DNA of 64,000 nt from Alphaproteobacteria bacterium (lineage in GTDB: Bacteria; Pseudomonadota; Alphaproteobacteria; CALKHQ01): the NCBI GenBank assembly GCA_965227515.1, contig CBDDFZ010000001.1:1728001-1792000 (forward strand), read 5' to 3'. The position numbers and the translations under genes are program-made. This document shows, one piece after another, positions 14,577 through 34,959 of this stretch. Positions within the stretch are counted from its first letter, which is position 1. Every line of letters starts with the position of its first letter. Under the pieces are notes generated by a model that was not told the origin of the DNA, ran no database searches, and worked only from the letters and a program-made list of their open reading frames with translations.

Positions 14577-14725
14577 CCGCTGGCGCACACCACACTGAAG
14601 TGACGGTCGAGGAAGGCCTAGGCGATCTGCCGGCCCGACCGCACCAGCGGGTGCGACAGGTCGATGATCTCATCGAGCGGCGGGCGGAACAGATCGACCT
14701 GGCGGTCGTCGCGCGGCCTGCTCAT
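14577..14725 (-). pseudogene. IS5-family transposase N-terminal remnant
   Basis: Manual translation MSRPRDDRQVDLFRPPLDEIIDLSHPLVRSGRQIA*AFLDRHFSVVC matches the IS5 DLFR..L..IID..HPLV.L...IDW N-terminus, with the Trp position read as TAG; rest missing. Confidence 0.7.
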
Positions 14726-14946
14726 GGGTCGGATCCTCAACGCCGAATGCTGCAACGTGGGCTCAACGCCCTGTGAAATCAATGGGTGATATTAATGGCT
14801 TGGCAAGAGCTCACCGGCGCCTATCGAGAGCATATCGTCAAAGAGGTTTTAGTATTTATGTGCGGGCGCTGAGATGTTTTATGTGTTTTTTTGAAGATCT
14901 TTCGTGCCATAAATAAACTCTAAAAGTGTATTGCTCGTCAAGTGTG

Positions 14947-15993
14947 TCATAATTGCTCGACGATATCCGCGGCTGAGTCATACATTTGGACAACGTCGCG
15001 CAACAAATCCGACCTACTGGCCCATCGGGATGCTCTTCGGCATGTCCTGACAGCGGCTTCACGGGTAATGCCAATCTTGTCGCCGGCCAAACAATGTTCA
15101 TGACTCCACCAGGGCCCGTCTCCCTTGTGCGATAGGATCAGGCCCAGTCGAATGCCCATATGCATCGTGCCGAATATGGCTAAGTATTCTAGTGACTCCG
15201 ACGCTTTGTTGGCGCCGACCAATTGTTCCACCCAGGTGTTAAGCGCGGCGTTTTCGAAGTCGCCCAGATCCGTCACATACTCGTCTGCGATCAACCAGGC
15301 GGCATCGTCAATTCGGCTACGGCGGCCACAATGCTCCCAATCAATCCAATAGACCGTATCGTCATCGGCCACGATGGCGTTGCCTGGTCTGGCATCCCAC
15401 TTCACGAGGCCATGTCGTTTCGGCCTCAAGCGCTTGGCGATGCTTTCGATGTTGATTTGCGGTTCGGGCAATCCGAAATGGCGAGCCAGGCGCAACGGGG
15501 TCTCCGCAAATTCCTGGCGCCATGGCCTGTCCAAGCCAATTGTGGCCACGTCGGCAGTCCAACGGCACTGGTCTGCGGCTTGATAGATCGCGCGCAGGCT
15601 CTCAAGTCCGCGGTCAAGCCATGCCAAGGTTTGGATAGGTGACAGGCCGTCCAGGACCTCGGTCAATCGCCTGGTGCCCACATCCTGCTGAATGATGATA
15701 TCTCGGTCGCGTGCGAGAATTGCAGGCACGGGCGCGCCAAGGACACTGAGTTCACTCAGGACTCGGCGCTCAAGCAAGCCGCGATTGCCAGATGAGCGTC
15801 TGGTGCCAATTACGGTCGTCCCGTCAGCCAACCTCAGTCGGATTGAGTCGCGCGATTTGCCGCCCGGGAAGCTAACGTCAACGGCCTTCTGGCCCAGAAG
15901 GCCTTCACACCGCTCTATGAAGAGTTTTCGTTCCTCGCGCCGCAAAGCTGGTACGCCGTATCCTGATGGTTCCGTCAGATTGGCGGCCACCAT
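14947..15993 (-). CDS. APH/choline-kinase-like phosphotransferase
   Basis: PVPAIL, LVKWDARPGNAIV (catalytic D..N), WIDWE (Mg-binding D). Confidence 0.75.
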   Translation of the reverse strand: MVAANLTEPSGYGVPALRREERKLFIERCEGLLGQKAVDVSFPGGKSRDSIRLRLADGTTVIGTRRSSGNRGLLERRVLSELSVLGAPVPAILARDRDIIIQQDVGTRRLTEVLDGLSPIQTLAWLDRGLESLRAIYQAADQCRWTADVATIGLDRPWRQEFAETPLRLARHFGLPEPQINIESIAKRLRPKRHGLVKWDARPGNAIVADDDTVYWIDWEHCGRRSRIDDAAWLIADEYVTDLGDFENAALNTWVEQLVGANKASESLEYLAIFGTMHMGIRLGLILSHKGDGPWWSHEHCLAGDKIGITREAAVRTCRRASRWASRSDLLRDVVQMYDSAADIVEQL

Positions 15994-16014
15994 ACAGGCT
16001 GCCGGACTGTAGAC

Positions 16015-16055
16015 AAAAAGGAATGGCCGCCGGGTACACGCCCGGCGGCCATTTT
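16015..16055 (-). terminator. Intrinsic terminator after the GS-repeat RTX gene
   Basis: AATGGCCGCCGGG/CCCGGCGGCCATT stem with a T-run on the minus strand. Confidence 0.7.
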
Positions 16056-16076
16056 AGGATTCGCCGTGATTTGGCG

Positions 16077-17987
16077 TCACGCAAGCGGCCCAACTAGTGC
16101 CACCTCGTCAGTGTAGTCTTGAATGACGAACAGCAGTGCACCATCGGCCTGATGGACGTTTGTGTTGCTGCCATCGACCACTGTGTAGTCGCCACGGACC
16201 ACATCTCCATCGTCGAAGTTGTAGTCCATGATGATGTCCGTTCCGCCATTCTCGAAATTGTCGACCTGGTTGCCGATGCCCTTGTGATCGAAGTGATCGG
16301 CACCCTCGCCACCATAGAGAATGTCGTCGTCGCGGCCACCATTCAGGGTGTCGTCCCCGTCGCCACCATTCAGCGTGTCAACGCCTGTTCCGCCATTGAC
16401 CTCGTCATTGCCGGAACCGCCATTCACGATGTCATCGCCGTCATCGCCCTGCAGGAAGTCGTCGTCGGCTCCGCCATCCAGCAGGTCGTCGCCGAGCCCA
16501 CCGAGCAAGAAGTCGCCGCCATCGTCCCCAAACAGCTGATCCATTCCGTCGTCACCGGACAAGAAGTCCTCGCCGTTTCCGCCGAACAGGGTGTCGTTGC
16601 CGCCGTTGCCAAACAGCGCATCCATGCCGTCCAGCCCGCTGATAACGTCGTCACCTCCCATACCCCGGATGATGTCGGCGCCACTGGTGCCTGTCAGTTC
16701 TTCGGAATCGTCGGTGCCGTTGATTTCGTTGAAATCGTCGGAATCCGGCCCGTGCTTTCCGCCGGAGCCCGAGCCCGAGCCGCTGCCGGAACCCGACCCC
16801 GAACCGCTGCCGGAACCGTGCTTTCCGCCGGAGCCCGAACCCGAACCACTGCCGGAACCCGAACCACTGCCGGAGCCATGCTTGCCGCCGGAGCCCGAAC
16901 CCGAACCGCTGCCGGAACCCGACCCCGAACCGCTGCCGGAACCGTGCTTTCCGCCGGAGCCCGAACCCGAACCACTGCCGGAACCCGAACCACTGCCGGA
17001 GCCATGCTTGCCGCCGGAGCCCGAACCCGAACCGCTGCCGGAACCCGACCCCGAACCGCTGCCGGAACCGTGCTTTCCGCCGGAGCCCGAACCCGAACCA
17101 CTGCCGGAACCCGAACCACTGCCGGAGCCATGCTTGCCGCCGGAGCCCGAACCCGAACCACTGCCGGAACCCGAACCACTGCCGGAGCCATGCTTGCCGC
17201 CGGAGCCCGAACCCGAACCACTGCCCGAGCCGTGCTTGCCGCCGGAACCAGAGCCGGAGCCCGAACCTGATCCACTGCCGGAGCCGTGCTTGCCGCCGGA
17301 ACCAGAGCCGGAACTCTTGGCGTACCAACCGCTGGGCGCAACGCCATCGAGCAGGTAGTCGGAACTATGCTTTCCGCCGGAGCCCGAGCCGGAACCGCTG
17401 CCGGAACCCGAACCCGATCCGCTACCGGAGCCGTGCTTGCCGCCGGAACCCGAGCCGGAGCCCGAACCCGATCCACTGCCCGAGCCGTGCTTGCCGCCGG
17501 ACCCCGAGCCGGAGCCCGAACCCGATCCGCTACCGGAGCCGTGCTTGCCGCCGGACCCCGAGCCGGAGCCCGAACCCGATCCGCTACCGGAGCCGTGCTT
17601 GCCGCCGGAACCCGAGCCGGAGCCCGAACCCGATCCACTGCCCGAGCCGTGCTTGCCGCCGGACCCCGATCCGGAGCCCGAACCCGATCCACTACCGGAG
17701 CCGTGCTTGCCGCCGGAACCGCTACCGGAACCCGAACCCGATCCGCTACCGGAGCCGTGCTTGCCGCCGGAACCTGATCCGGAGCCCGAACCCGATCCAC
17801 TGCCGGAACCGTGCTTGCCGCCGGAACCCGAGCCTGAGCCCGAACCTGATCCACTGCCCGAGCCATGCTTGCCGCCGGAACCCGAGCCGGAGCCCGAACC
17901 CGATCCACTGCCCGAGCCGTGGTAGGCGCCAGAGCCATTGCCCCCACTCAGATAACCTTTGAAATAGAGCTCATCGTACAAGGACAT
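16077..17987 (-). CDS. Gly/Ser-repeat ((GS)nGGKH x20) protein with C-terminal RTX Ca-binding repeats
   Basis: Start MSLYDELYF after AGGGGG; 20 GGKH-terminated repeats, then GGxGxD nonapeptides. Confidence 0.85.
16750..17925 (-). repeat. Coding tandem repeat: 54-nt units (block 1) and mostly 60/66-nt units forming a 126-nt higher-order repeat (block 2)
   Basis: Recurring (g/a)tgctt(g/t)ccgccgga with synonymous variation. Confidence 0.9.
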
Positions 17988-18557
17988 TGTGTTCCCCCTA
18001 GTTCGTCGGTTGCGTAGGCCTTCGCCCTCTCCCGTTTCAGTCTCGGAAGCCGGAAAGCACGACAATCGCCAAAGGTTAATCCAAGGGACGAGTTTTTGTA
18101 ATGAATTTTACATATTTTTACATTGCAATCGTTTTCAGGTTTTTCAGTGTTTCTTAGAAACCTTCTAGATCTTACGGAGACACGTTATGGTGGTTGAGTC
18201 TCTCAAGCATCCCGACAGCTTAATCTTGCTCGGTTCGAAAGACTTGGCAGCGATGCGTCCGTGCGAACGATTTAGAGTTTGAGGGCGTCTACCTTTGCAC
18301 ACATCCAGGTGAAGAGCTCGGAAATGGACCAGGTGAGCATCATACGGATCGACCAGCGGGTGGTGTCGGACCGTGGTGACGGATCAACTGCGCAACGACG
18401 TATGCGACGATCTGCTTTGAGCTGGGCCGAGGTGTATCTTTTCGAGCCGTTGTCCGCCGGGTGCGGTTGCTGTAGCGATACCTGTTCGCTTAGACTCATA
18501 CGCACACGGGCTCCGACCTCCGATCATTGGATCAGTCTGTGAAGGGATGGGGTGCGA

Positions 18558-20588
18558 ATGGCAAGTGTAATCGATGGTGTGGCAACGCTTGCCGCTGCTT
18601 ATCCTGGCTTGATCCCAACGCCTGTGGGAAACAGTTCCAGCAGCGCGGCAACGATGCCGAAACGGCGGGATGTGTTGGACGATGCGGGGCAGACACCTGA
18701 TAGCCTGTCCGACCTGCTAGCGCGCCTCGCTGAAGCACAGGCTGGAGCCTGCCGCATGTCTGACGTCTTGGGCCTGTTCCCAAGAGTATCGGCGGCAAAG
18801 CTATGGGACGACCTTCTGCGGTTCCTGCGAACGGAAGACTCAGATTCTGGCGATGACACGGGCGCAGCCGCGTTTTTCACCAAGACCGATACCGCGCGAT
18901 ATTTCAGGCTCTTTTCGACGCGCGCGCCGATGGTCTTGCCTCTGCTGCGAGCGGCGGATGGCCTGCCACCCACCATATGCGTCCCAAACCTGATGCCGGG
19001 CGACCAGACACCACAAGGTGTGCTTTCCGGGACTTGGGAACGTAGCTTAGCCGGCCCCGCTGGCATGCTGTTGCATGCGATGTTGGGCGGATGTGCGGAA
19101 GTTGCTGAATGCCTCGGGCATGGAATCGACCCCGATGCCGAACGTGCGTCGCACACCCAACGACAGCCTACAGATGCCTACGCCAACGCTTTGCAAGCAT
19201 GTGGGTATGCAGGACAGGCCGACCTCGAGCACGGACTGCCGGGAGCCGTTTGCGCTGGTGTGATTGTCGAGATACTCGAACTAGGAAGGAGTTCGTCTGA
19301 GTCCAGCTCGGAGCGAAAGGCTGCTCGAGGCAGAATGCGGCCTCTACTGAGCGATCTGCTCGACATGTGTGATCACCTCGCAATGGCGGACGGGGATGCG
19401 GCACTGGCATGCGCGGCCGACTATGCAGCCAACGGTCGAGGTGCAAGAGCTCGCAATCTCATAAGCCGCTGTGTTGTCCTCTATCCAAACGACCCTGACG
19501 TGCTGGCTCAACTGGCAGCACAGCAGCAGGAGACAGGCAGGGAGGACGAGGCGATTGAAACCTATGAGAAAATTCTTTCACTTGTCCCTGGCCATACCGT
19601 TGCACATGTCGGTCGCGGTGACCTCTATCTCAATCAACAACGGTTTGAACACGCGGCCGATGATTACGAAAAAGCTCAAGTGAATGCGGCGCCCGGGGAA
19701 GAGATTGAACAGCGCGGTAAGCTGTTAATTGAGTTGTCCAGCGCATACCGAGAGGCAAAGCAAAATGATGCAATGCCTACAGTGACTGTCAGCGACGACG
19801 AGTTTGCCACAGGGAAGTGGCATCCCGCTCGGTTGTCACTGGCACTGAATATGTTTCGACAGTATGGTGCGCTGAAGATCGCCAACGCATTCGATGTTGA
19901 CTTGCTCACCGCATGCAATCGCTACTTTGTCAAACGCTATTCATCGTATTTCGACCGTGGATCGAAGTCGGACGCCCTCAATATTGGAGACAAGAGATAT
20001 CAGATCGGAATCTCACTTGATGGAGCGTTCAACAACCCGGGCGTATATGCCAACAAGTTCGTATTGTCCCTGATGCAGGCCCTGTTGGGCGAGGATTTCG
20101 TCCTCGGGTGCACCGTTTGCGCCACCTCGATGCCCGGTGCAAAGGATCAGCACCTGCACAAGGATCATAAGTCATTGTTTTCCATGGATGCCGCGGGGGA
20201 GGCGGTAACACTGCCTCCATTCGCGGTGACAACAATGGTTCCGCTCGTGTCGCTCGACCATCGGATTGGCACCACTAGCGTCCGGAAGGGCAGTCATGTG
20301 CTTGGCAGCCGTGCGTCAAGAGATCTACCTTCACAAGAACCTTTGGTCCCGCTTGGGTCGTGCTTCCTGATGGATTTCCGGTTGTCGCATCAGGGTCTGG
20401 CCAACCAGACCAATACAGTGCGACCGATTATCAATATGGTGTACCAACGGCCATGGTTCTTCGATTCCAAGAACTTCACCAAGCACCCACCGCTCCACGT
20501 ACCCGAGGGCGAATTCAAGAAGGTGCCGTCGGAACACCGCCGGCTGCTGGAGTGGGGGACTCGGCCCGCCCCGCAGATTGCGATCTAG
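18558..20588 (+). CDS. TPR-repeat protein with C-terminal phytanoyl-CoA dioxygenase (Fe/2OG) domain
   Basis: TPR helices (EAIETYEKILSL.P), QHLHKDH (HxD), distal H in RLSHQGLAN, RP..NMVY. Confidence 0.8.
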   Translation: MASVIDGVATLAAAYPGLIPTPVGNSSSSAATMPKRRDVLDDAGQTPDSLSDLLARLAEAQAGACRMSDVLGLFPRVSAAKLWDDLLRFLRTEDSDSGDDTGAAAFFTKTDTARYFRLFSTRAPMVLPLLRAADGLPPTICVPNLMPGDQTPQGVLSGTWERSLAGPAGMLLHAMLGGCAEVAECLGHGIDPDAERASHTQRQPTDAYANALQACGYAGQADLEHGLPGAVCAGVIVEILELGRSSSESSSERKAARGRMRPLLSDLLDMCDHLAMADGDAALACAADYAANGRGARARNLISRCVVLYPNDPDVLAQLAAQQQETGREDEAIETYEKILSLVPGHTVAHVGRGDLYLNQQRFEHAADDYEKAQVNAAPGEEIEQRGKLLIELSSAYREAKQNDAMPTVTVSDDEFATGKWHPARLSLALNMFRQYGALKIANAFDVDLLTACNRYFVKRYSSYFDRGSKSDALNIGDKRYQIGISLDGAFNNPGVYANKFVLSLMQALLGEDFVLGCTVCATSMPGAKDQHLHKDHKSLFSMDAAGEAVTLPPFAVTTMVPLVSLDHRIGTTSVRKGSHVLGSRASRDLPSQEPLVPLGSCFLMDFRLSHQGLANQTNTVRPIINMVYQRPWFFDSKNFTKHPPLHVPEGEFKKVPSEHRRLLEWGTRPAPQIAI

Positions 20589-20606
20589 CGGGCTGCCGAG
20601 GCCGCC

Positions 20607-22166
20607 GTGCACGCCGAGATTATCGACGACTTCAGGAAACTTGAGAACCTGCGCGCGAACTGGGACGAACTCTATCGCAAGGATCCCGATGCGCAGCTAT
20701 TCCTGTCCTGGCCCTGGCTCTCGCATACATTTCGACGTCATCCAAAGCGCACATTTCTGATACTTGCCGTGCGCCCCGACACGCCTCGGGATCACTATCT
20801 TGCGTTCATGCCGTTGAGGCTAAGTTTGCGAAATGATGACAAGCTTGGAGGCTATTGCAACGAGCTCTACATGGCCGGCAACTACTGGGCGGACTATACG
20901 GGCTTCGTCGGCGACCCGGACCGTGACGCAGAAACCATACCGGCACTTGCAGCGGCGCTGAAATCTTTGTGTTGGAAGTCACTGCATCTTGACTTCCTGC
21001 ACATGTCGGAGGCCCGGACGGAAGGTTTGCTCGCTCAGTTCTCCGATGACACATTTCGGGTCGTTCGCCGGACCCGTGTCTCGCCGGTCGATGGCACCAA
21101 TTCCCTGATTTGTCCGTATATTGAGCTACCCAGTGAGTTCGATACTTACCTAGCCACCAATATGAGCGCTAACACACGGCAGAAATTCAGACGCTTTAGC
21201 CGACGTATCGATCAGTCGGACGTACTGGCTATCTCTGAGTCCAGCGCCCAGACCCGCTCGCGGGATCTTGACATACTGCGTCAGTTTTGGGTCGAAAAGT
21301 GGAGAACGCGAAAAGGCGACAGCACTGAGCGGCTTGGACGAAGATACGTCGATATTCTCGCGGCAGCAATGCGCGACGACATGGCCTATATTTGTCTGCT
21401 CTGGCGTGGTGATCAGCCATTGGGCGCGCTTGGCCACTTGATCGACTGGGAGAAGAAGTGCTTGATGTACTATGTCGCTGGTCGTGACGAAAAGGTCCAG
21501 GGCATTCCGATAGGCCTTCTTTTACATGGACACAGTATTCGGTGGGCGATTGAGCAAAAAATTGAAACCTATGATTTTCTTTGTGGTAATGAGTCCTTCA
21601 AGTATTCGTATGGTGTGCGAGAGCGTCAGATCAGGTGCTATGAAATCCGGACCAGGTCCGGATTCAACCTGCACGGCAGGCTCGACCCTCGCACAATGGA
21701 AAAAGCGCTGGAGCGTGCCACCCGGGCCCAAGACCGTGGGCGACTAAGCCGGGCTGAAGCCGGCTATCGGCAGGTGCTCGCAATCCGGCCCACCTCAGCG
21801 CGCGGTCTGCGCCGGCTCTCTCGCTTGCTCGTATCGCAGGGACGCTCGGCGGAAGCCGACGAATTTCTCGAAAGACTCGTTGAGTTGCGAGACAAGAGCG
21901 CGCTGGCGTGGGACATGCTTGGGCGGGTGAAGTTCGACTTGGGCGACTACAGGGAGGCTCGTTCATCGCTTATGCGGGCCGTCTCCCTCGGATCCGATGT
22001 ATCTGATGAGGCAGTCTCTTGTCTTGGTCGCGCCTGCCTGAGAATAGGCGATCCCAACGAAGCTGGTCGATGGTGCGATGTCTTGGCCGACCGTGCTCGA
22101 ACAAAAAACAGCATGTCTGCGCAGGCTCTTGCAGAAAACCTTCGTAATGAAATTGAACGTTCTTAA
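20607..22166 (+). CDS. CelD/BcsL-like GNAT acetyltransferase with C-terminal TPRs
   Basis: FLSWPWL, ADYTG, YDFLCGNESFKYSYG, TPR tail. Confidence 0.8.
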   Translation: MHAEIIDDFRKLENLRANWDELYRKDPDAQLFLSWPWLSHTFRRHPKRTFLILAVRPDTPRDHYLAFMPLRLSLRNDDKLGGYCNELYMAGNYWADYTGFVGDPDRDAETIPALAAALKSLCWKSLHLDFLHMSEARTEGLLAQFSDDTFRVVRRTRVSPVDGTNSLICPYIELPSEFDTYLATNMSANTRQKFRRFSRRIDQSDVLAISESSAQTRSRDLDILRQFWVEKWRTRKGDSTERLGRRYVDILAAAMRDDMAYICLLWRGDQPLGALGHLIDWEKKCLMYYVAGRDEKVQGIPIGLLLHGHSIRWAIEQKIETYDFLCGNESFKYSYGVRERQIRCYEIRTRSGFNLHGRLDPRTMEKALERATRAQDRGRLSRAEAGYRQVLAIRPTSARGLRRLSRLLVSQGRSAEADEFLERLVELRDKSALAWDMLGRVKFDLGDYREARSSLMRAVSLGSDVSDEAVSCLGRACLRIGDPNEAGRWCDVLADRARTKNSMSAQALAENLRNEIERS

Positions 22167-22476: not shown

Positions 22477-22532
<56 letters not shown>

Positions 22533-22591
22533 TCAGAACAGTATTGAGAACAATGGCTTATCAATGAATTGTTGCGTCTGTGTCGCACACA

Positions 22592-23704
22592 TCATCCGAC
22601 CAGCGCGAGTTCCGCCGCATCGAGGCGTTCCTGGTCGCGGCCTTCGTCAGGCCACAGGTGGGCATACAGATCCATGGTCATGACGATGGACTCGTGACCG
22701 AGCCGGCTCTGGACTTCCTTCTCGCGGTAGCCCTGGTGGATGAGCCACGAGGCATAGAAGTGCCGCAGGGCGTGCAGGCCATACTTCGGCTTGCCGTCTT
22801 TCGTCAGGCCGGCTTCGATCTGCATCGGATCGAAACCGCGCTGGCGGATGTTGGCGTAGGATTCGACGTTACCCTTGCCGTTCGGAAACACGAGGTCCAG
22901 ACGGCTGGCTGGGCACCGTAGCTTCCATTCCTTGAGAGTGTTGCTGACGAGCTTGCCGATGGGAATGTCGCGAAAGCCGGCTTCGGACTTCGGCGCACCA
23001 ATGGTGCCCCATTCGTCTGCCCGCTGCCGTACATGGATGACGCGATCTTCCGCGTCTTGCCAGCGCAGGGCGCGCAACTCGGACGCGCGGAGGCCCGTCA
23101 TGGCGGCGACTACGACGAATGGACGCCAGCGGTCGGACGCAGCGGCGATGAGCTGTTGAACCTCAGCCATCGTCGGAGGGACCACCCGTTTGCGGTGCCG
23201 CTTTGGCACGTCGATAGTGGTCTTGCTGGCGACGTTCTGTCCGACCAGGCCACGACGTTGCGCGTCGTACAAGACTGACTTGAGGCTGGTCAGCACCTTG
23301 CGTGCCATTGGCCGCGAGTGCTTTTCCAAGAGCCGGTCACGAAACGCCTCTGCATCCGGCGCGGTGAACTGAGTCAATCGAGTGCTTCCAAGCTCCGGCG
23401 CGATGTGCAGACGGACGTGGCGACGATACGCCACCAGCGTGTTGCGCTCGCGCCCTTCGGCTTCCAGGCGAGCCAGCCATAGGTCGGCGGCTTCCTGAAT
23501 GGTCTTCGACGCACCATCGGCTACGTGGGTACCGCGACGCACATCGACGTGGGTCTGGCTCGCCCACGCGTCCGCGTCCTTCTTCGTGGAGAACGTCTTG
23601 AGGCGGCGCTTGCCCTGTCCGTCTTTGTAGTCGACAACCCAGGCCGTCCGATCCTTGCCACCGCTGGACCATTTCCGCTTTCGAACTGCCACGACCGCCT
23701 CCAT
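22592..23704 (-). CDS. Tyrosine recombinase/integrase
   Basis: TGLRASE, HALRH, LGH, DLYAH: catalytic R, HxxR, H and Y intact; N-terminal arm-binding region. Confidence 0.95.
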   Translation of the reverse strand: MEAVVAVRKRKWSSGGKDRTAWVVDYKDGQGKRRLKTFSTKKDADAWASQTHVDVRRGTHVADGASKTIQEAADLWLARLEAEGRERNTLVAYRRHVRLHIAPELGSTRLTQFTAPDAEAFRDRLLEKHSRPMARKVLTSLKSVLYDAQRRGLVGQNVASKTTIDVPKRHRKRVVPPTMAEVQQLIAAASDRWRPFVVVAAMTGLRASELRALRWQDAEDRVIHVRQRADEWGTIGAPKSEAGFRDIPIGKLVSNTLKEWKLRCPASRLDLVFPNGKGNVESYANIRQRGFDPMQIEAGLTKDGKPKYGLHALRHFYASWLIHQGYREKEVQSRLGHESIVMTMDLYAHLWPDEGRDQERLDAAELALVG

Positions 23705-23803
23705 TGGTTACGTCGCATTCCCATATTGTTGCAAATACTCCCTGTGTCAATGGTCGTCGCCAGATGAGCGCCGAAAAAAATGTCTGCGTGCCGCAGTTAA
23801 TGC

Positions 23804-24178
23804 TTGCCAGCGGGAAAAAATGTGGGCATCTTCAACGCGGTCCCGAAGTGCGCCCGCGCTCCGGGATTATTTGTGCCCGAACTTCAGGGAATATCAACCG
23901 CAACGGGAATGACCCGTTGACACCCATCCGAAAAGTGAGGTAACACCAACTCGTTCCCGAAGTGCGCCTAAACGGTGGCTTCGGGTTTGTTGTTTTCGGC
24001 CCTCGCGCGGACTCAACGTCCGCTAGAAAAAGCCGTTGACAGCCATCCGAAAATTACTTACCTGAACGTCGGGCCCGAAGTGCGACTGCATTCCGGGCCT
24101 TTTTCATGCCCGCCCGGCCGCCGTCGGCGCGGGCTTTTTCATACCCGCCCAGCATCCCGCTGCGGCGGGTTTTTTTTG
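23804..24178 (+). promoter_or_regulatory. Three tandem sigma70-like promoter + CCCGAAGTGCG hairpin units, then two more terminator hairpins
   Basis: TTGCCA 23804, TTGACA 23917 and 24036, each 38-39 nt before CCCGAAGTGCG (23842, 23956, 24074); each motif opens a stem-loop followed by a T-rich tract. Confidence 0.7.
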
Positions 24179-24195
24179 TCCGAACGAGGTGAACC

Positions 24196-24405
24196 ATGAC
24201 CGACACGCTGGGTGACGATCTGCTCCACGGCGTCAAAGCCATCGCCGCATACATCGGCGAGAGCGAGCGCCGCACCTTCTACCTGCTTGAGCGCAACATG
24301 CTGCCCGCCACGAAGCTTGGCGCACGGTGGGTGTCCCGCAAGTCCGCTATCGCCAAGCGGTTTGACCTCGATGGCGACCAGCGGGAGACGTGCAATGCAG
24401 CCTGA
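24196..24405 (+). CDS. Excisionase/AlpA-like DNA-binding protein
   Basis: DLL.G.KAIA.YIG...R.FYLL....LPA.KLG.RW pattern, GAGG RBS, divergent from integrase. Confidence 0.75.
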   Translation: MTDTLGDDLLHGVKAIAAYIGESERRTFYLLERNMLPATKLGARWVSRKSAIAKRFDLDGDQRETCNAA

Positions 24406-24574
24406 TCTGATTGCCAGGTCGATTATCCGTCGTTGGCGCGAAGGGTTGCGCGGCGATGAACTCCACCTGGCCGTACGCGCGGATTTTCCGGATTGTCCGT
24501 CGGAGGTCTACGGCGCTGCTGCGGCTGCTGCTTGGGCAGAGATGCGAGGTGCGACCAGCGATGATGCGGCCTGA
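24395..24574 (+). CDS. Small hypothetical protein
   Basis: 59-aa ORF overlapping both neighbours. Confidence 0.45.
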   Translation: MQPDLIARSIIRRWREGLRGDELHLAVRADFPDCPSEVYGAAAAAAWAEMRGATSDDAA

Positions 24575-25256
24575 AACGAAACCGCCGCCTCCGGTTGGCG
24601 GAACCGGGGCGGCGGTGAAATGGAATTGGCTTGGCGGCTCAAATTCCGACACCGAACATACCGCCACCGCCGCAGATGTTCAACTGCCAGTCGACTTGCA
24701 CCACGAGTTGGCCATCGCGCAGCGCCTTGCAGGGCGATATGGCCTGGACAACAAACTTCAGGCCTACGGCATTACCCCTGCCGACCAGATCGAAACCGAT
24801 GTGATAGCAGTCGACCGCATCCTAGTCGGCGCCGGGCGGTACTCCCCACTTCCCCATCATTTGCCTACAGACAGGTTGAGCCGGCCATCCGAGTTGTGGT
24901 GCCTCACCCCGATCCGTTCTCCAGCGGGCGAGGTCTTCAACGTGGTGGCATGGCGGCCGAACAGTCGCCAGACTTACGTGCGGATGCGCTGGCCGGCGCT
25001 ACTGGGCTGCGGCATCGGAGACGATCCCATCGACCGCGCCCTGATCTGTGACGAGCCGCTGGTCGTCTACGGCACAGTCGCGGCGTGGCACAGGCAGGCG
25101 CATGGCCCTGGTGTCGTGTGGTTGAACGACGACGTGTCGGAACTGTGGGGTGTCGACCGCGCCCTGACTGATGACATGGAGACGTTGCGCAAGCTGCGGG
25201 TCGCAGACGTTGACGCGCGGTTCATTGCTGCGGAGGTGGATGCCCATGCAGCATGA
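24561..25256 (+). CDS. Hypothetical protein, possibly a degenerate primase-like domain
   Basis: P....G...VVAW....LLG....PL.V......W......GVV pattern recalled from prophage replication genes; directly upstream of helicase. Confidence 0.45.
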   Translation: MMRPETKPPPPVGGTGAAVKWNWLGGSNSDTEHTATAADVQLPVDLHHELAIAQRLAGRYGLDNKLQAYGITPADQIETDVIAVDRILVGAGRYSPLPHHLPTDRLSRPSELWCLTPIRSPAGEVFNVVAWRPNSRQTYVRMRWPALLGCGIGDDPIDRALICDEPLVVYGTVAAWHRQAHGPGVVWLNDDVSELWGVDRALTDDMETLRKLRVADVDARFIAAEVDAHAA

Positions 25257-26304
25257 CAATTCGGCGCGGTGGGAAGCGGCGAGCCCCTATGCCGGCCTGA
25301 CGCTCAGCCTTGATGCGTGGGCCGCACGCGATGTGCCTCCACGGCGCCTGTTGCTGGGCGATATCTTCTCAGCGACGACCCGGGCCATGCTGGTCGCGGA
25401 CACCGGCATCGGAAAGACGCACTTGGGGTTCGCGTTCGCCTTCGCAATGGCCGCTGGCGAGCCCTTCTGCCATTGGGAGGGGCATGAGCCCGCGAAGGTG
25501 CTGATTGTCGACGGGGAGATGAGCATCGGGCTCATGAAAGAACGCCTCGCCGATGCCGAGCGCCGGCTTGGTATCAGGCCGCCCGATCTGCATTGCGTCT
25601 GCCGCGAGGAAGCGGAGCAGATGCCTGCGCTGGACACGCCGGAAGGCCAGGCATGGATGGACGGCTTAGTCCAACACCTTGGTGGCATCGACTTCCTGAT
25701 CCTCGACAACATCATGAGCCTGACGTCTGGGGATATGCTCGACCCGGAAGGCTGGAAGCCGGTCACGACTTGGATGCGCGCGCTTACTGCCCGCCAGATC
25801 GGTTGTCTGTGGATCCACCACACCGGCCACGACGGCAGCCGCAGCTTCGGGACCAAAACTCGCGAATGGCAACTCGACTTGGTGATGGTCGGTGAGAAGG
25901 TGGACGATCTCGCAGCCGATATTGCGCTCAAGGTTACGTTCAAGAAGGCCAGACAGCGCACGCCAGCGACGCGGGAAGACTACGAGACGACCACGCTACG
26001 GCTGACTAAGGACATTTGGACCAGCGACAACGCCGGGCAACGACAGACAGGTAGGGTGTCACCAGCCGGGCTCAAATTCAAAGATGCCTTGGCCAACGCC
26101 CTGTCGCTTCCTGCTGCCGAGCACTTCAACGGACAGCGCGCCGTCACCTTCGATGTCTGGAGGAACGAGTGCGAGCGAATGGGCCTGATCGATGGCCAGG
26201 ACAAGCCCCACAGCGCGCGAGCCCTGCTCTCAAAGTATCGGCGGGAGTTGGTCGCAGCCAACGTTGTGGTCTGCGAGAACGACCTGGTTTGGATGGTTTC
26301 ATGA
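25246..26304 (+). CDS. AAA_25/RepA-like (SF4) replicative helicase
   Basis: Walker A ADTGIGKT, VDGEM, ILDN, IHH; GGAGG RBS. Confidence 0.85.
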   Translation: MQHDNSARWEAASPYAGLTLSLDAWAARDVPPRRLLLGDIFSATTRAMLVADTGIGKTHLGFAFAFAMAAGEPFCHWEGHEPAKVLIVDGEMSIGLMKERLADAERRLGIRPPDLHCVCREEAEQMPALDTPEGQAWMDGLVQHLGGIDFLILDNIMSLTSGDMLDPEGWKPVTTWMRALTARQIGCLWIHHTGHDGSRSFGTKTREWQLDLVMVGEKVDDLAADIALKVTFKKARQRTPATREDYETTTLRLTKDIWTSDNAGQRQTGRVSPAGLKFKDALANALSLPAAEHFNGQRAVTFDVWRNECERMGLIDGQDKPHSARALLSKYRRELVAANVVVCENDLVWMVS

Positions 26305-26419
26305 CCAGCGCTGAAACCATGGCGAAACCATGGGGCGAAACCATGCGAAACCGCCCTGAAACCATAGTGAAACTGCGGCCTTCGTTGCGCGCAACCATAA
26401 GCGAAACCACCGCAACCGG
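26293..26419. repeat. Iteron cluster, putative replication origin
   Basis: GAAACCA(T) and variants at 26313, 26324, 26337, 26347, 26358, 26369, 26391, 26403, 26412; inverted copy at 26293. Confidence 0.7.
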
Positions 26420-26637
26420 TCCCTTATGGGACCGTTGCAGTTTCGCAGGCCTGTTGATGGCGGGGAAAGAGCCTCTGCAAACCACATCGGGCCACGCGCG
26501 CGAAGGTCTACCAGCGTGTGTTGTTCTGCCGCCTTGTTGCGAAAAGGGATATATTATCCCCGTGTCAGTCGTTGCTTTTCGTTGGGTTTGTGGCATATTG
26601 TTGCGGATGTGTCGCATGAGCCACGAAGGAGGGCCGC

Positions 26638-26826
26638 ATGGCCAGCACGACAGTGAGATACGAGGCTGACGCGGTGTCGATAAAGATCGGCAGCGCGGAC
26701 GCGGGGTATGACGTTCACAACAACCTGACCAGCCACCGTGACCCGGTGCTGCGGACGATTGCGCAAGAGTACGCCACGAACGGCACCACGGCAGGTGTCG
26801 TGACGATCACGGCGCAGGCGGGTTGA
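26638..26826 (+). CDS. Small hypothetical protein, first gene of putative late operon
   Basis: Strong AAGGAGG RBS, 62 aa. Confidence 0.6.
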   Translation: MASTTVRYEADAVSIKIGSADAGYDVHNNLTSHRDPVLRTIAQEYATNGTTAGVVTITAQAG

Positions 26827-26828
26827 CG

Positions 26829-27059
26829 ATGGCCAAGATGATCGCCTGCGTCGTTGACGACCAATCGGAGATGAAGGTGTTGCAGGGCCTGCCGGGCGGA
26901 TGCTGGCGCGTCAGCATGGACGTTCCCGCCGGTGGCCTGCACGGCTTGATTGGCGCCCATGGCAGGGGGCCGCTGCGGCAGCACTTCGCCGAAGCTGACT
27001 ACGGCATTGGCAAGACCGAGACGCCTGCCGAGCGCAACAAGCGGCTTGCCGGTCGATGA
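26829..27059 (+). CDS. Small hypothetical protein
   Basis: ATGA overlap with next gene. Confidence 0.5.
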   Translation: MAKMIACVVDDQSEMKVLQGLPGGCWRVSMDVPAGGLHGLIGAHGRGPLRQHFAEADYGIGKTETPAERNKRLAGR

Positions 27060-27736
27060 GCGAGACCCCCGCCGAAGCGCAAGAGGCGCTTATCGACGCC
27101 GATGTCGAGGCGTTCCTTGAGAACAAGCCCGCCCCGACAGAGGACCTCGCGGAGTTCGAGCACGACGACCCAACTCCTGGCCTTGCGCCTGGCGTTGAGG
27201 GGCAGAGCCCGGAGTCCCTGCGCAACCTGACGAGCTACTTGTCCAGCACGTTGGGCGACGACGTGCCGACGCCTGCCGAGTTCGCCAAGACGGACCCGGC
27301 CCTTGCGGGCAGCCTCAAGCGGGCCTGGGGCGGCGACTACGACCTGAACGTCCGGTTGGTGCAGTCGGCATTGTCCAGCCTTCCTCCGGCACTGGTGAAC
27401 GCTGGCGTGAAGGCGGGGCTGGACAAGGATGTTGGCCTGTTGTCGGCCCTGGCCAAGCGGGAGCTATCGGCCCGCCGCCAGACGGCATGGCCTGGAATCT
27501 ACGCAACCCCCGCCGACCATGGCGAAGTTGGTGAAAGGAGTGATGGAGTGGAACCCGAGGAATTGAGTGCAACGGAGCGTGCCCGGCTGGAGCGCGCCCG
27601 TCAGAAGGCTGTGGGGCAGTCCATAGATGCAAACAGGCGCGGCGACCGTGACGAAGCCAAGCGGCTGGCCGATATCGGCATGCGGTTGGCGACGCGGCTG
27701 TACGGCGATAAGCCGGCGGATGGCAGCTTGGGCTGA
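27056..27736 (+). CDS. Putative capsid scaffolding-like protein
   Basis: Acidic N-terminus, LKRAWGGDYDLNV motif reminiscent of podovirus scaffolds, basic helical C-terminus. Confidence 0.45.
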   Translation: MSETPAEAQEALIDADVEAFLENKPAPTEDLAEFEHDDPTPGLAPGVEGQSPESLRNLTSYLSSTLGDDVPTPAEFAKTDPALAGSLKRAWGGDYDLNVRLVQSALSSLPPALVNAGVKAGLDKDVGLLSALAKRELSARRQTAWPGIYATPADHGEVGERSDGVEPEELSATERARLERARQKAVGQSIDANRRGDRDEAKRLADIGMRLATRLYGDKPADGSLG

Positions 27737-28170
27737 TGGCCCGTTACCGCTGGAATCCTCGCATGGAAGCGTTTGCCATTGCCTATGCAGCCGGGAATTC
27801 CGGGGCTGAGGCCGCGCGGCAGGCGGGCTATCGGGGCGGGCGGTACCAGGCACGGGAACTGCTCAAGCGCGACGATGTGAAGGTTCGCATTGCCGAGATC
27901 CAGGCAGAAACGGCCAAGCGGAACGAATTCACCGTCGACAAGTTGATGGAGCAGCTCAAGGAAGACCGGGAGGCGGCACGGGAAGCCGGCCAGCACAGCG
28001 CCGCCGTGAAGGCGAGCGAGTTGCAGGGCAAGCTGAGTGGCCACCTTGTCGACCGGGTAGACGCGCGGGTGCAGATGGACACTCGCACCGACGAACAGAT
28101 CGAGGCATCCATTGCAGCGAAGATGCGTCAGTTGGGGCTGGCCGCAAAGGTCATCGAACATGACGGCTGA
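27736..28170 (+). CDS. Terminase small subunit
   Basis: EAFAIAY..GNSGAEAARQAGY...LL...VK.RI.E; AAVKASELQGKL.G. Confidence 0.85.
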   Translation: MARYRWNPRMEAFAIAYAAGNSGAEAARQAGYRGGRYQARELLKRDDVKVRIAEIQAETAKRNEFTVDKLMEQLKEDREAAREAGQHSAAVKASELQGKLSGHLVDRVDARVQMDTRTDEQIEASIAAKMRQLGLAAKVIEHDG

Positions 28171-28942
28171 GGCGCTCAAGGAACTCGACGCCGAGCTTGC
28201 CGAGCTGGCCCGCCGCAAGGCCCGCCGCAAGCTATCCAGGTATCGACCCTATCCGAAACAGGCCGAATTCCATGCCGCTGGTGCCGAGCACCGCGAGCGC
28301 TTGCTGTTGGGGGGCAATCGATGCGGCAAGACCGAGGCCGGCGGCGCCGAAGTCGCGATGCACCTGACTGGCCGATATCCTGACTGGTGGAAGGGCAAGC
28401 GGTTCGGTGAGCCGATAGTTGCCTGGGCATCCGGCATCACGTCCGAGTCCACGCGCGACGTTCCGCAAGAGAAGCTGATTGGCCCGCCCGCCGACAGATC
28501 GTCCTGGGGCACGGGGATGATACCGGGCGATGCCCTGGGGCCGCACTCGATGGCCCGCACGGTTGCCGACGCGCTCGACCAGGTGATCATCAAGCATGTG
28601 ACCGGCGGCCAATCCATCCTGGGCTTCAAGACCTATGAAAAGGGCCGCGAGAAGTGGCAGGGCGCGGCGCTGCATTTGATTTGGTACGACGAGGAACCGC
28701 CCGTCGATATCTACAACGAGGGCTTGGCCCGGCTATCCGACAACCGCGGCATCGCATTGGCGACGATGACACCGCTGTTGGGCATGTCGGAAGTGGTGCG
28801 CGGCTTCATCCACCAGGACGTGGACGAGGGCGAACCCGAACTGGTTGACCCGCCGGGTTGGACCGAGGCCGATGACGACCCGATGGGCGTGAAGATCCCG
28901 CCGAAGCCGCTTCCAAGCCACTACCGGGTGCGGCGCCGATGA
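28160..28942 (+). CDS. Terminase large subunit, ATPase half (P22-like)
   Basis: PYPKQAEFH, GGNRCGKT, IWYDEEP, TMTPLLG. Confidence 0.9.
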   Translation: MTAEALKELDAELAELARRKARRKLSRYRPYPKQAEFHAAGAEHRERLLLGGNRCGKTEAGGAEVAMHLTGRYPDWWKGKRFGEPIVAWASGITSESTRDVPQEKLIGPPADRSSWGTGMIPGDALGPHSMARTVADALDQVIIKHVTGGQSILGFKTYEKGREKWQGAALHLIWYDEEPPVDIYNEGLARLSDNRGIALATMTPLLGMSEVVRGFIHQDVDEGEPELVDPPGWTEADDDPMGVKIPPKPLPSHYRVRRR

Positions 28943-29685
28943 CGAAACACGTCACCTTCCTGACGCTGGACGATGCCGAGCATTTCAGCCCGGAGGAACG
29001 CGAGCGCATCGCTGCGGACTACCCCGCCCACGAGCGCGAAGCCCGTGCCAAGGGCGTGCCGATGCTGGGCAGCGGCCGGGTTTTTCCTGTGGCCGAGGAA
29101 GGCATCACCTGCGCGCCGTTCAAGGTGCCGGACTTCTACGCCTGCATCGGTGGCATGGACTTCGGTTGGGACCATCCTTTCGGCGCCGTGAAGCTGGCCT
29201 GGGACCGCGACGATGACGTGATCTACGTGGCGCAGTGCTATCGGGCGCGCGAGGAAACTCCGGCCATCCACGTCGACGCCATCAAGCCCTGGGGACCGGC
29301 GATGCCCTGGGCCTGGCCGCACGACGGTCACCAGCACGACAAGGGCTCAGGCGAGGCGCTGGCGGGCGGATACCGCCGCCGGGGGCTCAACATGCTGCCT
29401 GAGCACGCGACCCACGAGGACGGCGGCTTCGGCACCGAGGCCGGCATCACTCAGATGCTGGAATACATGCAGGCAGGCCGCTTCAAGGTGTTCTCGCACC
29501 TGGCCGACTGGTTCGAGGAATTCCGCCTTTATCACCGCAAGGCCGGGAAGATCGTGAAGGAAGCCGACGACTTGCTGTCGGCAACGCGCATCGCCGTCAT
29601 GAGCCTGCGCTTCGCCAAGCCGCGCACAGCGGAAAGACGGCGACCAATGCCTACGCACTACAACATTGAACGGAGAAAGAGATGA
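28939..29685 (+). CDS. Terminase large subunit, nuclease half
   Basis: DDAEH...EREARAKG.P.LGSGRVFP, GMDFGWDHP, DDLLSATR; ATGA overlap with ATPase half. Confidence 0.9.
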   Translation: MTKHVTFLTLDDAEHFSPEERERIAADYPAHEREARAKGVPMLGSGRVFPVAEEGITCAPFKVPDFYACIGGMDFGWDHPFGAVKLAWDRDDDVIYVAQCYRAREETPAIHVDAIKPWGPAMPWAWPHDGHQHDKGSGEALAGGYRRRGLNMLPEHATHEDGGFGTEAGITQMLEYMQAGRFKVFSHLADWFEEFRLYHRKAGKIVKEADDLLSATRIAVMSLRFAKPRTAERRRPMPTHYNIERRKR

Positions 29686-30059
29686 CTACCAAAACGCTCG
29701 AAAAGCCGGCGGATCGTCCGCCGGTTCACCTGGGCAGGCAAGACATGGTTCGGACGGACACCAACGGGTCGTGCCCCTCCCACTGGACTTTGATGACCCA
29801 TGCGACGCCGGAGGAAATCTTGTCTCCGGGCTGGTTCGATAACGCCTATGGCGATGTTCTGTTTGTCGACGACGTGATACTCGCACTCTACGGGCCCGGC
29901 GAATTTGAGGCGCAGAAAGCCGGAAACCAGACTTGGCGCGGCGGCGCCAAGCCACACCAGCGCATGAAGCTGTTGGTGACCAATCGCGTGCCTAAGACCG
30001 AAAACATGGGCCTAGTCTCGGCATGGCACATCACGGTCGAGCCGTACGACGGTCCCTGA
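29682..30059 (+). CDS. Hypothetical protein
   Basis: 125-aa ORF overlapping both neighbours. Confidence 0.55.
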   Translation: MTTKTLEKPADRPPVHLGRQDMVRTDTNGSCPSHWTLMTHATPEEILSPGWFDNAYGDVLFVDDVILALYGPGEFEAQKAGNQTWRGGAKPHQRMKLLVTNRVPKTENMGLVSAWHITVEPYDGP

Positions 30060-32569: not shown

Positions 32570-32571
32570 CG

Positions 32572-32799
32572 ATGGACGATGAAGAGCTCGAACGCCGCCT
32601 TGACAGGCTCAGGAGGGCAAACTGGGATACGGACCTAGGCGCCGCCCGCTACATCGTTGAAGACATGGGCTTTGAGGATGCGCTTCGGATGGCGACCAAC
32701 GAATTGGAGCATGGCGCGCCCGATGAGCGCGAAACGTGGGAAGGCATTGTCGGGGCGCTGAACTACATGAAGATGCGCGGCGAGGCGCCAAAAGAATGA
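32572..32799 (+). CDS. Small acidic hypothetical protein
   Basis: GGAG RBS, ATGA overlap with next gene. Confidence 0.55.
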   Translation: MDDEELERRLDRLRRANWDTDLGAARYIVEDMGFEDALRMATNELEHGAPDERETWEGIVGALNYMKMRGEAPKE

Positions 32800-33338
32800 C
32801 AGCCGTGCGTGTCCGCGACCTGCCCGAGCGGCCTTTTCGGTATCGTGTCACCGGGTCATTCCGTGACCAAAAAAGCTTGCAGTGCCGCATTTCGATTGGA
32901 CGCCCGGACGAGCCGGACAAGTCGCGCATCGAGCTGGACGCGGTGCTCGACACGGGAGCTACATCCTGCATCATCCCTCACGAGATCGTAGAACGTCTGG
33001 GCCTGCGAAGTATCGCGAACAATATTCCTCTGAAGACGACTTCGCGGATTGAGAAGAAGAAAGCCTACGTGATTGGGTATGACTTTCTGGACAAAGAACC
33101 CATGCATGACACTTGGTCTGACAAAGCGCAGCGCTGGCGTCAGATCAATTCGGATGTCGCCACCTTTGCAAAGCACACTGGTGAGCTTTGCCGGCTTGAT
33201 GACCGATACGATGTCGTCACGGTGGCGCTGGGCGGCAACCGCCAGGGAAAGGGTGGGGAGGCTATGATTGGCCTGCGCAACCTTGCGCTCGGCGAGCTGC
33301 TGGTGAACAGAAATGAGACCTTCTCGTTCTGCTTCTAG
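32796..33338 (+). CDS. Clan AA (retropepsin-like) aspartic protease
   Basis: AVLDTGAT and C-terminal MIGLRNL motifs. Confidence 0.7.
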   Translation: MTAVRVRDLPERPFRYRVTGSFRDQKSLQCRISIGRPDEPDKSRIELDAVLDTGATSCIIPHEIVERLGLRSIANNIPLKTTSRIEKKKAYVIGYDFLDKEPMHDTWSDKAQRWRQINSDVATFAKHTGELCRLDDRYDVVTVALGGNRQGKGGEAMIGLRNLALGELLVNRNETFSFCF

Positions 33339-33391
33339 GTCGAGACCCTGCATGCCCCGGCCGGCACGGTTCATTTAGGGCGGTAACCAGA

Positions 33392-34356: not shown

Positions 34357-34358
34357 TC

Positions 34359-34876: not shown

Positions 34877-34959
<83 letters not shown>

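Follow-up and report, generated by a model that had tools for sequence, protein, structure and literature searches.

A Gly/Ser/Lys repeat protein flanked by kinase, dioxygenase and Fem-like genes: a candidate cassette for the modification of type I secretion substrates in an alphaproteobacterium

Why should the gene for a protein that over 389 residues consists of little else than Gly, Ser, Lys and His be surrounded by genes for a kinase, a dioxygenase and a GNAT-type transferase? The question is raised by a stretch of 64,000 nucleotides from an alphaproteobacterium (Alphaproteobacteria bacterium; GenBank assembly GCA_965227515.1, contig CBDDFZ010000001.1, positions 1,728,001 to 1,792,000), referred to in the following as the window. 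We consider it rather probable that a conserved, hitherto undescribed cassette for modifying a low-complexity export substrate in the cytoplasm is present here in reduced form, its four genes having been acquired horizontally. As judged from the gene neighbourhoods of relatives, the recurring unit appears to be a low-complexity Gly/Ser/Lys export substrate together with cytoplasmic enzymes; that the enzymes act on the repeat protein, on which residues, by which chemistry, and by which route the product leaves the cell is what we infer beyond this. The genes are arranged as follows (coordinates in the window, strand in brackets; TPR, tetratricopeptide repeat):

14947-15993 (-): gene for an APH-fold kinase, 348 aa (open reading frame (ORF) list, Foldseek on the model, relatives)
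16022-16053 (-): hairpin resembling an intrinsic terminator, 13 pairs (10 of them G-C) and a T run, between repeat gene and kinase gene
16077-17987 (-): gene for the repeat protein, 636 aa (ORF open to TTG 18065; Pfam)
17988-18551 (no strand): divergent intergenic region between repeat gene and dioxygenase gene
18552-20588 (+): gene for the TPR-PhyH dioxygenase (Pfam TPR and PhyH)
20607-22166 (+): gene for the GNAT-TPR protein, 519 aa (Pfam Acetyltransf_6 and TPR)

The repeat gene and the dioxygenase-GNAT pair are transcribed divergently from one common intergenic region, and only 18 nt separate the stop of the dioxygenase gene from the start of the GNAT gene. The G+C content (GC) is 0.54-0.60 over 14.5-23 kb when the repeat tract is excluded, 0.63-0.70 in windows on the tract (approximately 16-18 kb) and 0.67-0.71 in the left flank, which is made up of hydantoinase genes. 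An earlier note, made from the letters of this stretch, had described a tract of about 390 Gly, Ser, Lys and His residues with 20 GGKH units fused to RTX repeats, a kinase-fold gene downstream of it behind a terminator, a divergent pair of genes for a TPR-dioxygenase and a GNAT-TPR protein upstream, and a block more AT-rich than its flanks. All of this was found again: the tract has 389 aa and 20 units and is followed by PF00353 repeats, the model of the kinase (pLDDT 91) matches APH-type kinases in Foldseek, a 13-bp stem and a T run lie at 16022-16053, Pfam places TPR/PhyH at 18552-20588 and Acetyltransf_6/TPR at 20607-22166, and the difference in GC is as given above.

The ORF of the repeat protein extends over 16077-18065 (-); its likely start is the ATG at 17987, which is preceded by AGGGGG and yields 636 aa. 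Three parts can be distinguished:

17940-17987 (-): N-terminal motif of 16 residues, class (D/N)L.(F/Y).(D/E)YL.GG
16752-17918 (-): low-complexity tract, residues 24-412, 389 aa (composition, Tandem Repeats Finder)
16263-16640 (-): RTX nonapeptide block with seven GG.G.D-type motifs (motif count, Pfam)

Motifs of the N-terminal class are also found at the head or flank of the GS (Gly-Ser) tracts in the substrates of relatives. The tract itself contains 48% G, 39% S, 5.4% K and 5.1% H, its 20 GGKH units being separated mostly by (GS)7-9, and Tandem Repeats Finder resolves it into 54- and 126-nt arrays across 16753-17921. A tract of the (GS)nGGKH type occurs only once in the 5.5-Mb genome of the organism and is therefore not due to chance. 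The sole other tract of this genome with a faint resemblance to it lies outside the window at C1:401826-402020 (-), where 65 aa are made up of an Asp run and a GGS/GSG tract (DDDDDDDGHSGGSGSGGGESGG...). The seven RTX motifs are at residues 460-559 of the 636 and match the Pfam family HemolysinCabind (PF00353) in 4 stretches (E 4e-21; 75 bits vs a cut-off of 23). Tandem GGxGxD nonapeptides near the C-terminus, by which RTX substrates of type I secretion are recognized, are thus present, and the tail of about 60 aa after the block is presumed to be the secretion signal; the neighbouring export genes that also belong to such systems are absent from the window and present in the cassettes of relatives. 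The protein as a whole is acidic (D 52 and E 9 vs K 23). NCBIfam gives weak, composition-driven matches to SdrC/SdrD/Clf (39 vs 1700-bit cut-offs).

The answer proposed here is carried by the surroundings of related enzymes in other organisms. For the kinase, 80 loci from species-representative genomes were analysed with a crude ORF caller and blastp clustering; they came from an alignment-based scan, a scan with the single protein having yielded one weak locus. Their partners include an RTX cluster, found at 29 loci and there mostly as the immediate neighbour, an ATP-binding cassette (ABC) protein of about 580 aa (29 loci) and a HlyD-type membrane fusion protein (MFP; 26 loci), the last being confirmed by Pfam. 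Homologues of the two TPR enzymes of the window are found in 9 of the loci in addition to the window. In Gammaproteobacteria the typical order is a small low-complexity GS-K protein, ABC, MFP, kinase and TPR enzymes. When the kinase loci (1.10 Mb) were scanned in six frames, (GS)nG[K/H/R] tracts were detected in 38 of the 80, several of them cut by contig ends; the same scan of the organism's own genome (5.5 Mb) gave 12 weak matches, that in the window alone being of the (GS)nG[K/H/R] kind. In 56 of the 80 loci at least one of three features, namely tract, RTX ORF and ABC+MFP pair, lies within 6 kb of the kinase gene. Fuller cassettes occur also in the cultured organisms Granulosicoccus sp. 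3-233 (loci L071/L096) and Algimonas arctica KCTC 32513 (L115).

For the dioxygenase, 37 loci were obtained with a smaller alignment, the first one (A2) being too diverse for the locus scan. Gly/Lys/Ser tracts are present in 22 of them, as compared with one such tract in the organism's own genome. In Burkholderiales the partner, about 65 aa long, is a peptide in which a double-glycine leader (MRVLTLEEMLLxAGG) precedes a Gly/Lys core, the latter sometimes free of Ser; it adjoins genes for an outer membrane efflux protein (OEP), an ABC protein with C39 peptidase and HlyD, and a stand-alone kinase is absent from these loci. At L110 (3194-12391) and some 14 like Burkholderiales loci the layout is OEP, C39-ABC, HlyD, a 330-aa protein, a dioxygenase of the kinase-TPR-PhyH type (see below) and the 65-aa peptide, the Gly/Lys core of which ends in Cys motifs. 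These loci have the look of an undescribed family of peptides that are made on the ribosome and modified after translation (RiPPs). The 330-aa protein was considered as a relative of the kinase and rejected, the two being unrelated.

The GNAT-TPR protein keeps wider company. Among 80 loci anchored on it, out of 331 family matches, an ABC gene lies directly upstream in 68 and an MFP gene in 69, while a kinase is found in only 4 and a tract in 7; on these neighbourhoods the GNAT is probably an accessory of type I secretion at large, not of GS tracts. The loci include those of cultured Bradyrhizobium, Mesorhizobium, Afipia and Nitrobacter, and the gene before the pump in such loci encodes an acidic non-GS protein without Pfam match. 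In these genera a conserved operon (L143, 4426-11551; L141, 3676-11623) encodes an acidic protein of about 650 aa, followed by ABC, MFP and the Fem-like GNAT-TPR protein, the last possibly an enzyme, not characterised so far, by which type I secretion substrates are modified.

As a control, the 194 loci were merged by common 60-mers to 130 groups, a procedure that over-merges. Tracts are present in 46 of the 90 groups with kinase or dioxygenase vs 3 of the 40 with GNAT (and type I secretion system, T1SS) only (Fisher p 1e-6, the groups not being independent), and 61 of 64 tracts lie at most 5 kb from a kinase or dioxygenase gene (median 1.0 kb). The composition of the tracts differs with the enzyme: less than 20% Ser was found in 8 of 12 dioxygenase-only groups vs none of 34 kinase-containing groups, and a Lys content of 8% or more in 17 of 18 dioxygenase-containing groups vs 15 of 28 kinase-only groups. 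Across these loci, Ser content goes with the kinase and Lys content with the dioxygenase. Of 62 tracts, 22 have the motif [DEN][YF]L.G[GQ] next to them, the background being 0.0145 per 1000 aa; the small precursors and the protein of the window have it at their head, and where it occurs in RTX proteins it coincides in part with the RTX consensus. None of the curated NCBIfam models scores above cut-off with the four window proteins or three small precursors, and no signal peptides were seen by eye on the cassette enzymes.

What can be said of the enzymes themselves? The kinase, a single-copy gene in the 5.5-Mb genome, has no Pfam match at E 0.01, PF01636 included. Its AlphaFold model (pLDDT 91) has 462 Foldseek matches in the PDB at E 1e-3 or better, and the 46 of these that are listed are all APH-type kinases. 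The top one among the matches listed is corramycin phosphotransferase (8agy; E 1e-9, TM 0.67), and others are YtaA (2q83), AmiN, amicoumacin kinase, homoserine kinase, LicA, APH enzymes and the RiPP kinase TvaE with leader peptide. Sequence relatives number 220 at E 1e-3 or better (about 35-56% identity), most of them carrying PF01636 and most named phosphotransferase. The motifs KWDARPGN (D200, N205) and IDWEH (D218) are intact in the window; in an alignment of 32 sequences, with the consensus KWDxRPGN / (I)DWEH, these three residues are invariant, as is R66, and the usual ATP-binding Lys is not assignable. The kept catalytic motifs and the matches of the model point to an intact APH-fold kinase, a fold that does not name the substrate. 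Other searches added little: the PDB-sequence profile search with the alignment gave LicA only (E 0.028), the ESM Atlas nothing but "APH domain/hypothetical" clusters, and in a quick, unfinished tree the labels for genomic context clustered weakly. A complex prediction of the kinase with residues 1-60 of the repeat protein (score 0.20, mark 0.32) was uninformative either way, and inspection by eye revealed no signal peptide on the kinase.

The kinase relatives have some further neighbours. Hybrid or 7TMR-DISM histidine kinases adjoin the kinase at giant-RTX loci (L012, 8488-10815; L044, 11149-13650; L025; L070) and may be cassette regulators. An ORF of about 400 aa follows the kinase gene in tandem (L013, 4625-5830; L022; L024; L059) or is fused to it (L026, L046); it has weak NCBIfam matches to HprK-related kinase B (E 3e-8) and FomB kinase. 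At the Burkholderiales loci L048, L057, L074 and L082 the order is recG, kinase, UbiA prenyltransferase, with no link to secretion.

The dioxygenase protein is composed of three parts:

18552-19331 (+): decayed APH-like domain (alignment with relatives)
19398-19691 (+): TPR repeats (Pfam)
19854-20426 (+): PhyH-type Fe(II)/2-oxoglutarate dioxygenase domain (Pfam PF05721, invariant residues)

The PhyH part has what is expected of a member of its family, namely the Pfam match (29.6 bits vs a cut-off of 22), the triad H536-x-D538 and H613, and R624, these residues being invariant in the alignments. The closest solved relative in profile searches is kanamycin B dioxygenase (KanJ; 6s0u, E 7e-19), an oxidative deaminase. 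There are 266 representatives at E 1e-30 or better, full-length ones having about 730 aa. All 32 aligned sequences match PhyH, and 14 of them match APH (PF01636) in the N-terminal third, the window sequence, which is one of the 32, being without this match; the homologues at L073 and L010 match APH. With the consensus LNHGDLRxxN...DWD in the same third, the APH matches indicate that the family, as read from its alignment, is a three-domain kinase-TPR-PhyH enzyme with a kinase part that has decayed in the window. The TPR and Fe/2-oxoglutarate dioxygenase parts noticed earlier stand, and the designation as a TPR-dioxygenase is too narrow for the family. The window copy has no intact N-terminal kinase domain: its N-lobe is gone, HGD has become VPN and DWD has become TWE. 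The closest relative, P0121, is degenerate at the kinase site too (HGN and SWE), which argues that the loss is older than the window copy. An in-frame TGA is present at 18540-18542, 9 nt ahead of the dioxygenase start, and the frame upstream of it (about 18399-18542) has a faint likeness (ALSWAE...) to the kinase N-lobe of relatives; when the TGA was read through as X, BLAST aligned only from just past the stop, so that an N-lobe remnant at about 18399-18542 is not significant.

The GNAT-TPR protein has two parts:

20607-21656 (+): tandem-GNAT (Fem-like) domain (Pfam, model, Foldseek)
21684-22166 (+): TPR domain (Pfam, model)

Pfam assigns the first to Acetyltransf_6 (E 3.5e-18) and not to FemAB. 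The model (pLDDT 94) has the FemX-like tandem GNAT fold by which Fem-type proteins are recognized: Foldseek matches it to Weissella FemX (1xf8; E 3e-11, TMt 0.65-0.68), to the aminoacyl-tRNA-dependent peptide synthases Sbb17/Sba18 (TMt 0.73-0.75; 9wqy, TMt 0.75), to staphylococcal FemX and FemA, and to MprF and PG-synthase (PGS) domains. A PDB-sequence profile search gave TPR matches only among the 60 of 372 listed. By its model, the GNAT is closest to a Fem-type aminoacyl-tRNA transferase fold, not to a plain acetyltransferase. Relatives are named CelD/BcsL-type by their sources. L073 (2199-4745, -) encodes an 848-aa fusion of a Fem-like GNAT with an aldehyde dehydrogenase, and the same fusion is found in L106; a separate aldehyde dehydrogenase, 65% identical, adjoins the dioxygenase at L095 (560-1957), and more distant ones (35% identical) are present in L123 and L126. 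These partners hint at an aldehyde intermediate such as allysine.

With these results the proposals of the earlier note can be judged. It had read the locus as a dedicated system for modifying the repeat protein and had suggested conservation of the neighbourhood as a check. Relatives of the kinase (38 of 80 loci) and of the dioxygenase (22 of 37) do lie beside tracts, and the lack of co-occurrence with low-complexity RTX proteins elsewhere, which the note had named as speaking against its reading, is not what is seen: both repeatedly have as neighbours low-complexity secreted proteins rich in Gly, Ser and Lys, RTX proteins, and exporters of the type I or PCAT kind. The idea of dedicated enzymes is supported for these two by adjacency and by the link to composition; it does not extend to the GNAT, which is not tract-linked and is tied to T1SS generally. 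GNAT and TPR parts, as noted, are present in the GNAT-TPR protein, and its fold has turned out to be Fem-type.

The setting of the four genes is that of an acquired islet, as which we read the block. Its right limit is marked by one further feature:

22477-22532 (no strand): exact 56-nt copy of the 3' part of tRNA-Phe, border of an integrase island and right limit of the low-GC block

The copy forms a perfect direct repeat with 34877-34932, both reproducing the 3' part of tRNA-Phe (34884-34959). The 12.4-kb island between the two (22477-34932) carries an integrase (22592-23704) and an AAA_25 protein (25171-26304). The four-gene block stands just outside it, with the island border on one side and the hydantoinase operon on the other; the idea that the island carries the block as cargo was therefore rejected, the repeats bracketing 22477-34932 only. 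A DNA search of 30 relatives (3 of the same family) did not find the block, all matches being to RTX repeats. When contigs of four sequencing runs were compared with 14600-16100, pieces of the kinase gene together with the left junction were found, near-identical, in three other runs (X2, X4, X5), with 0-6 differences for most and 23 in one piece. The four-gene block contains no exporter genes (ABC, MFP or outer membrane protein), and four ABC+MFP pairs elsewhere in the genome are 25-33% identical to the pumps of cassettes in other organisms. On the left, an ORF of 35 aa (MSRPRDDRQVDLFRPPLDEIIDLSHPLV...) is found at the edge of the low-GC block (14621-14725, -), without Pfam match and without paralogue in the genome; it has some likeness to the N-terminus of IS5/IS1182-type transposases.

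How could such a cassette operate? In the mechanism proposed here, a Gly/Ser polypeptide punctuated by Lys (in the window by GGKH) would be synthesized in the cytoplasm, where the TPR domains would grip the extended repeat. The APH-fold kinase would phosphorylate Ser of the GS tracts before export. The TPR-PhyH dioxygenase would oxidise Lys side chains, either by hydroxylation or by a KanJ-like oxidative deamination, and in full-length relatives the fused kinase domain, which is dead in the window, would phosphorylate the new hydroxyl group. The Fem-like tandem-GNAT-TPR protein would put an aminoacyl or acyl group on the Lys amine. The product would leave the cell by type I secretion via its RTX block and C-terminal tail, in the window organism presumably through an unlinked genomic ABC/MFP pump. 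If this is true, bacterial secreted proteins would gain a further level of chemistry from a widespread cassette with kinase, hydroxylase(-kinase) and Fem-like transferase, functions could be assigned to three large families of uncharacterised enzymes, and genetically encoded phosphorylated or branched repeat polymers for biomineralisation, adhesives or coacervates would come within reach. A more far-reaching version, in which the product is a silaffin-like zwitterionic bacterial polymer with poly-phospho-Ser, with Lys hydroxylated and O-phosphorylated by the fused hydroxylase-kinase and with tRNA-dependent amino-acid branching of the Lys amines by a Fem-type transferase, and in which after type I secretion this polymer serves as a matrix that nucleates minerals, forms coacervates or adheres, is doubtful in our view; extracellular materials built by post-translational modification would then form a class of their own, a new one, and for no ribosomal protein would side chains have been seen before to be branched in a tRNA-dependent way.

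Several observations weigh against the proposed cassette. Adjacency alone is no proof of an enzyme-substrate relation. In 24 of the 80 kinase loci there is neither tract, RTX ORF nor T1SS pair; in 13 of these the flank on one side is shorter than 3 kb, and 11 have at least 3 kb on both sides and are real exceptions, and some Burkholderiales relatives stand between recG and ubiA. The criteria for tracts (G+S+K at least 80%) partly shape the composition result. Most GNAT-TPR relatives adjoin T1SS genes without GS tract or kinase, the GNAT thus not being specific to this substrate. The window is without ABC/MFP genes, the four pairs of the genome being merely about 25-33% identical to cassette pumps, a terminator stands between repeat gene and kinase gene, and the dioxygenase has a decayed kinase domain that an in-frame TGA precedes. 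Finally, the nearest solved kinases work on small molecules or peptide antibiotics, and KanJ, the nearest solved PhyH relative, has an aminoglycoside as substrate.

Four other explanations were weighed. That a mobile islet has left behind, in the window, a cassette that is decaying and no longer functions, irrespective of the role of the family in other organisms, would fit the low GC and the attachment-site copy at the right border, the failure to find the block by DNA in 30 relatives apart from its RTX repeats, the lack of exporter genes, the decayed kinase domain and the TGA upstream of it. We think it unlikely: none of the four ORFs is interrupted, kinase, PhyH and GNAT retain their catalytic motifs, the kinase site is degenerate in P0121 too, which dates the loss before the window copy, and near-identical pieces of the kinase gene are found in contigs of other runs. 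Alternatively, the enzymes may act on a polysaccharide, a lipid or a small molecule and be adjacent to the repeat protein in common surface or secretion islands, as the CelD/BcsL-type names of GNAT relatives, the small substrates of the solved kinase and PhyH relatives and the aldehyde dehydrogenases fused or adjacent in 4 contigs would suggest. This is quite improbable given that the adjacency recurs in Alpha-, Beta- and Gammaproteobacteria with varying gene order and three export/leader types, that the composition of the tract tracks the enzyme present, that dioxygenase and GNAT both bear fused TPR domains, and that no sugar- or lipid-pathway genes recur in the loci of kinase relatives.

Two further explanations keep the tract as substrate and assign it another fate. 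The Gly/Lys-rich products could be cationic, microcin-like antimicrobials that the kinase keeps harmless in the producer, as in a prodrug, or to which it confers resistance, instead of making a phosphoprotein with a function of its own. The top fold matches of the kinase do modify antibiotics (corramycin phosphotransferase, amicoumacin kinase, APH), and the short cationic double-glycine-leader peptides of Burkholderiales with their C39-ABC have the layout of class II bacteriocins. However, it is precisely these peptide loci that have no stand-alone kinase, the partners where the kinase occurs by itself are often giant RTX adhesin-like proteins with few Lys, and the substrate in the window is acidic overall (D 52 and E 9 vs K 23); we regard producer protection as improbable to about the same degree as action on another kind of substrate. 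Phospho-Ser can also be eliminated to dehydroalanine, which then forms lysinoalanine or histidinoalanine cross-links, and phosphorylation of the tract would in this case merely create a leaving group on the way to a gel or fibre cross-linked via Lys or His. The argument for this is one of composition, Ser tracts being regularly punctuated by the nucleophiles K, H or C, to which the presence of the RiPP kinase TvaE with leader among the Foldseek matches can be added. With no lyase gene recurring in the loci of kinase relatives and with many tracts punctuated by R, D or W instead, cross-linking seems very improbable. We retain the modification cassette as the rather probable explanation.

In which respects does the proposed cassette resemble known systems? 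To our knowledge, no modification of type I secretion substrates other than HlyC-type Lys acylation is well known. The toxin-activating acyltransferases of hlyCABD operons modify Lys of RTX proteins, and the likeness lies in a proposed cytoplasmic enzyme beside a type I substrate and pump that would act on internal Lys in a Gly-rich context before export; moreover, in 68-69 of 80 loci the GNAT-TPR gene immediately follows those for ABC and MFP. Here, however, the fold is that of a Fem-like tandem GNAT with TPR, a kinase and a dioxygenase are added, and the substrate in the window consists of low-complexity repeats without pore-forming domain. FemX/FemABX, Sbb17/Sba18 and MprF are the best fold matches of the GNAT domain, and Weissella FemX attaches an amino acid to the Lys epsilon-amine; unlike FemX/FemABX, the window protein belongs to Acetyltransf_6, is fused to TPR and is linked to T1SS. 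TPR-bearing protein hydroxylases are known in AspH and in the collagen prolyl/lysyl hydroxylases, with which the window enzyme has in common a 2-oxoglutarate oxygenase joined to a TPR-type peptide-binding module, and with KanJ, the nearest solved sequence relative, it has in common the PhyH domain with HxD...H triad. Unlike in AspH and the collagen hydroxylases, the domain is of the PhyH family, and the kinase-TPR-PhyH architecture is absent among the solved matches, KanJ included. The staphylococcal Ser-Asp repeat adhesins Sdr/Clf are likewise low-complexity Ser-rich proteins with dedicated neighbouring enzymes, but these Gram-positive adhesins are modified by adjacent glycosyltransferases and anchored by sortase, and the NCBIfam score of the window protein is 39 vs 1700 bits.

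With RiPPs, class II bacteriocins and microcins the cassette shares the logic of precursor, tailoring enzymes and exporter. The Burkholderiales relatives, with double-glycine leaders and C39-ABC, have the short leader-bearing precursor, the tailoring enzymes and the protease/exporter that define such systems. The window does not: its substrate has 636 aa and an RTX block, no cleavable leader, and no protease or exporter gene nearby. As for silaffins, a passage in PMC4557024 describes native silaffin-1A of diatoms as phosphorylated at all Ser and as delta-hydroxylated and phosphorylated at Lys. As far as that passage goes, a Ser/Gly/Lys-rich secreted substrate combined with a Ser kinase and a fused hydroxylase-kinase would parallel these modifications, a parallel that is striking and that is an analogy only: Pfam and NCBIfam reveal no homology of the window proteins to silaffins, and the likeness is one of composition and of inferred modifications. 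Silaffins differ in being eukaryotic, in passing through the endoplasmic reticulum pathway and in having polyamine-modified and methylated Lys, and the fused kinase domain in the window is dead. Full-text literature searches found no published description of the cassette or of this combination of enzymes. With moderate confidence we conclude that the logic of precursor, tailoring enzyme and exporter is that known from RiPPs and from HlyC/HlyA, and that the type of substrate and the set of enzymes are new.

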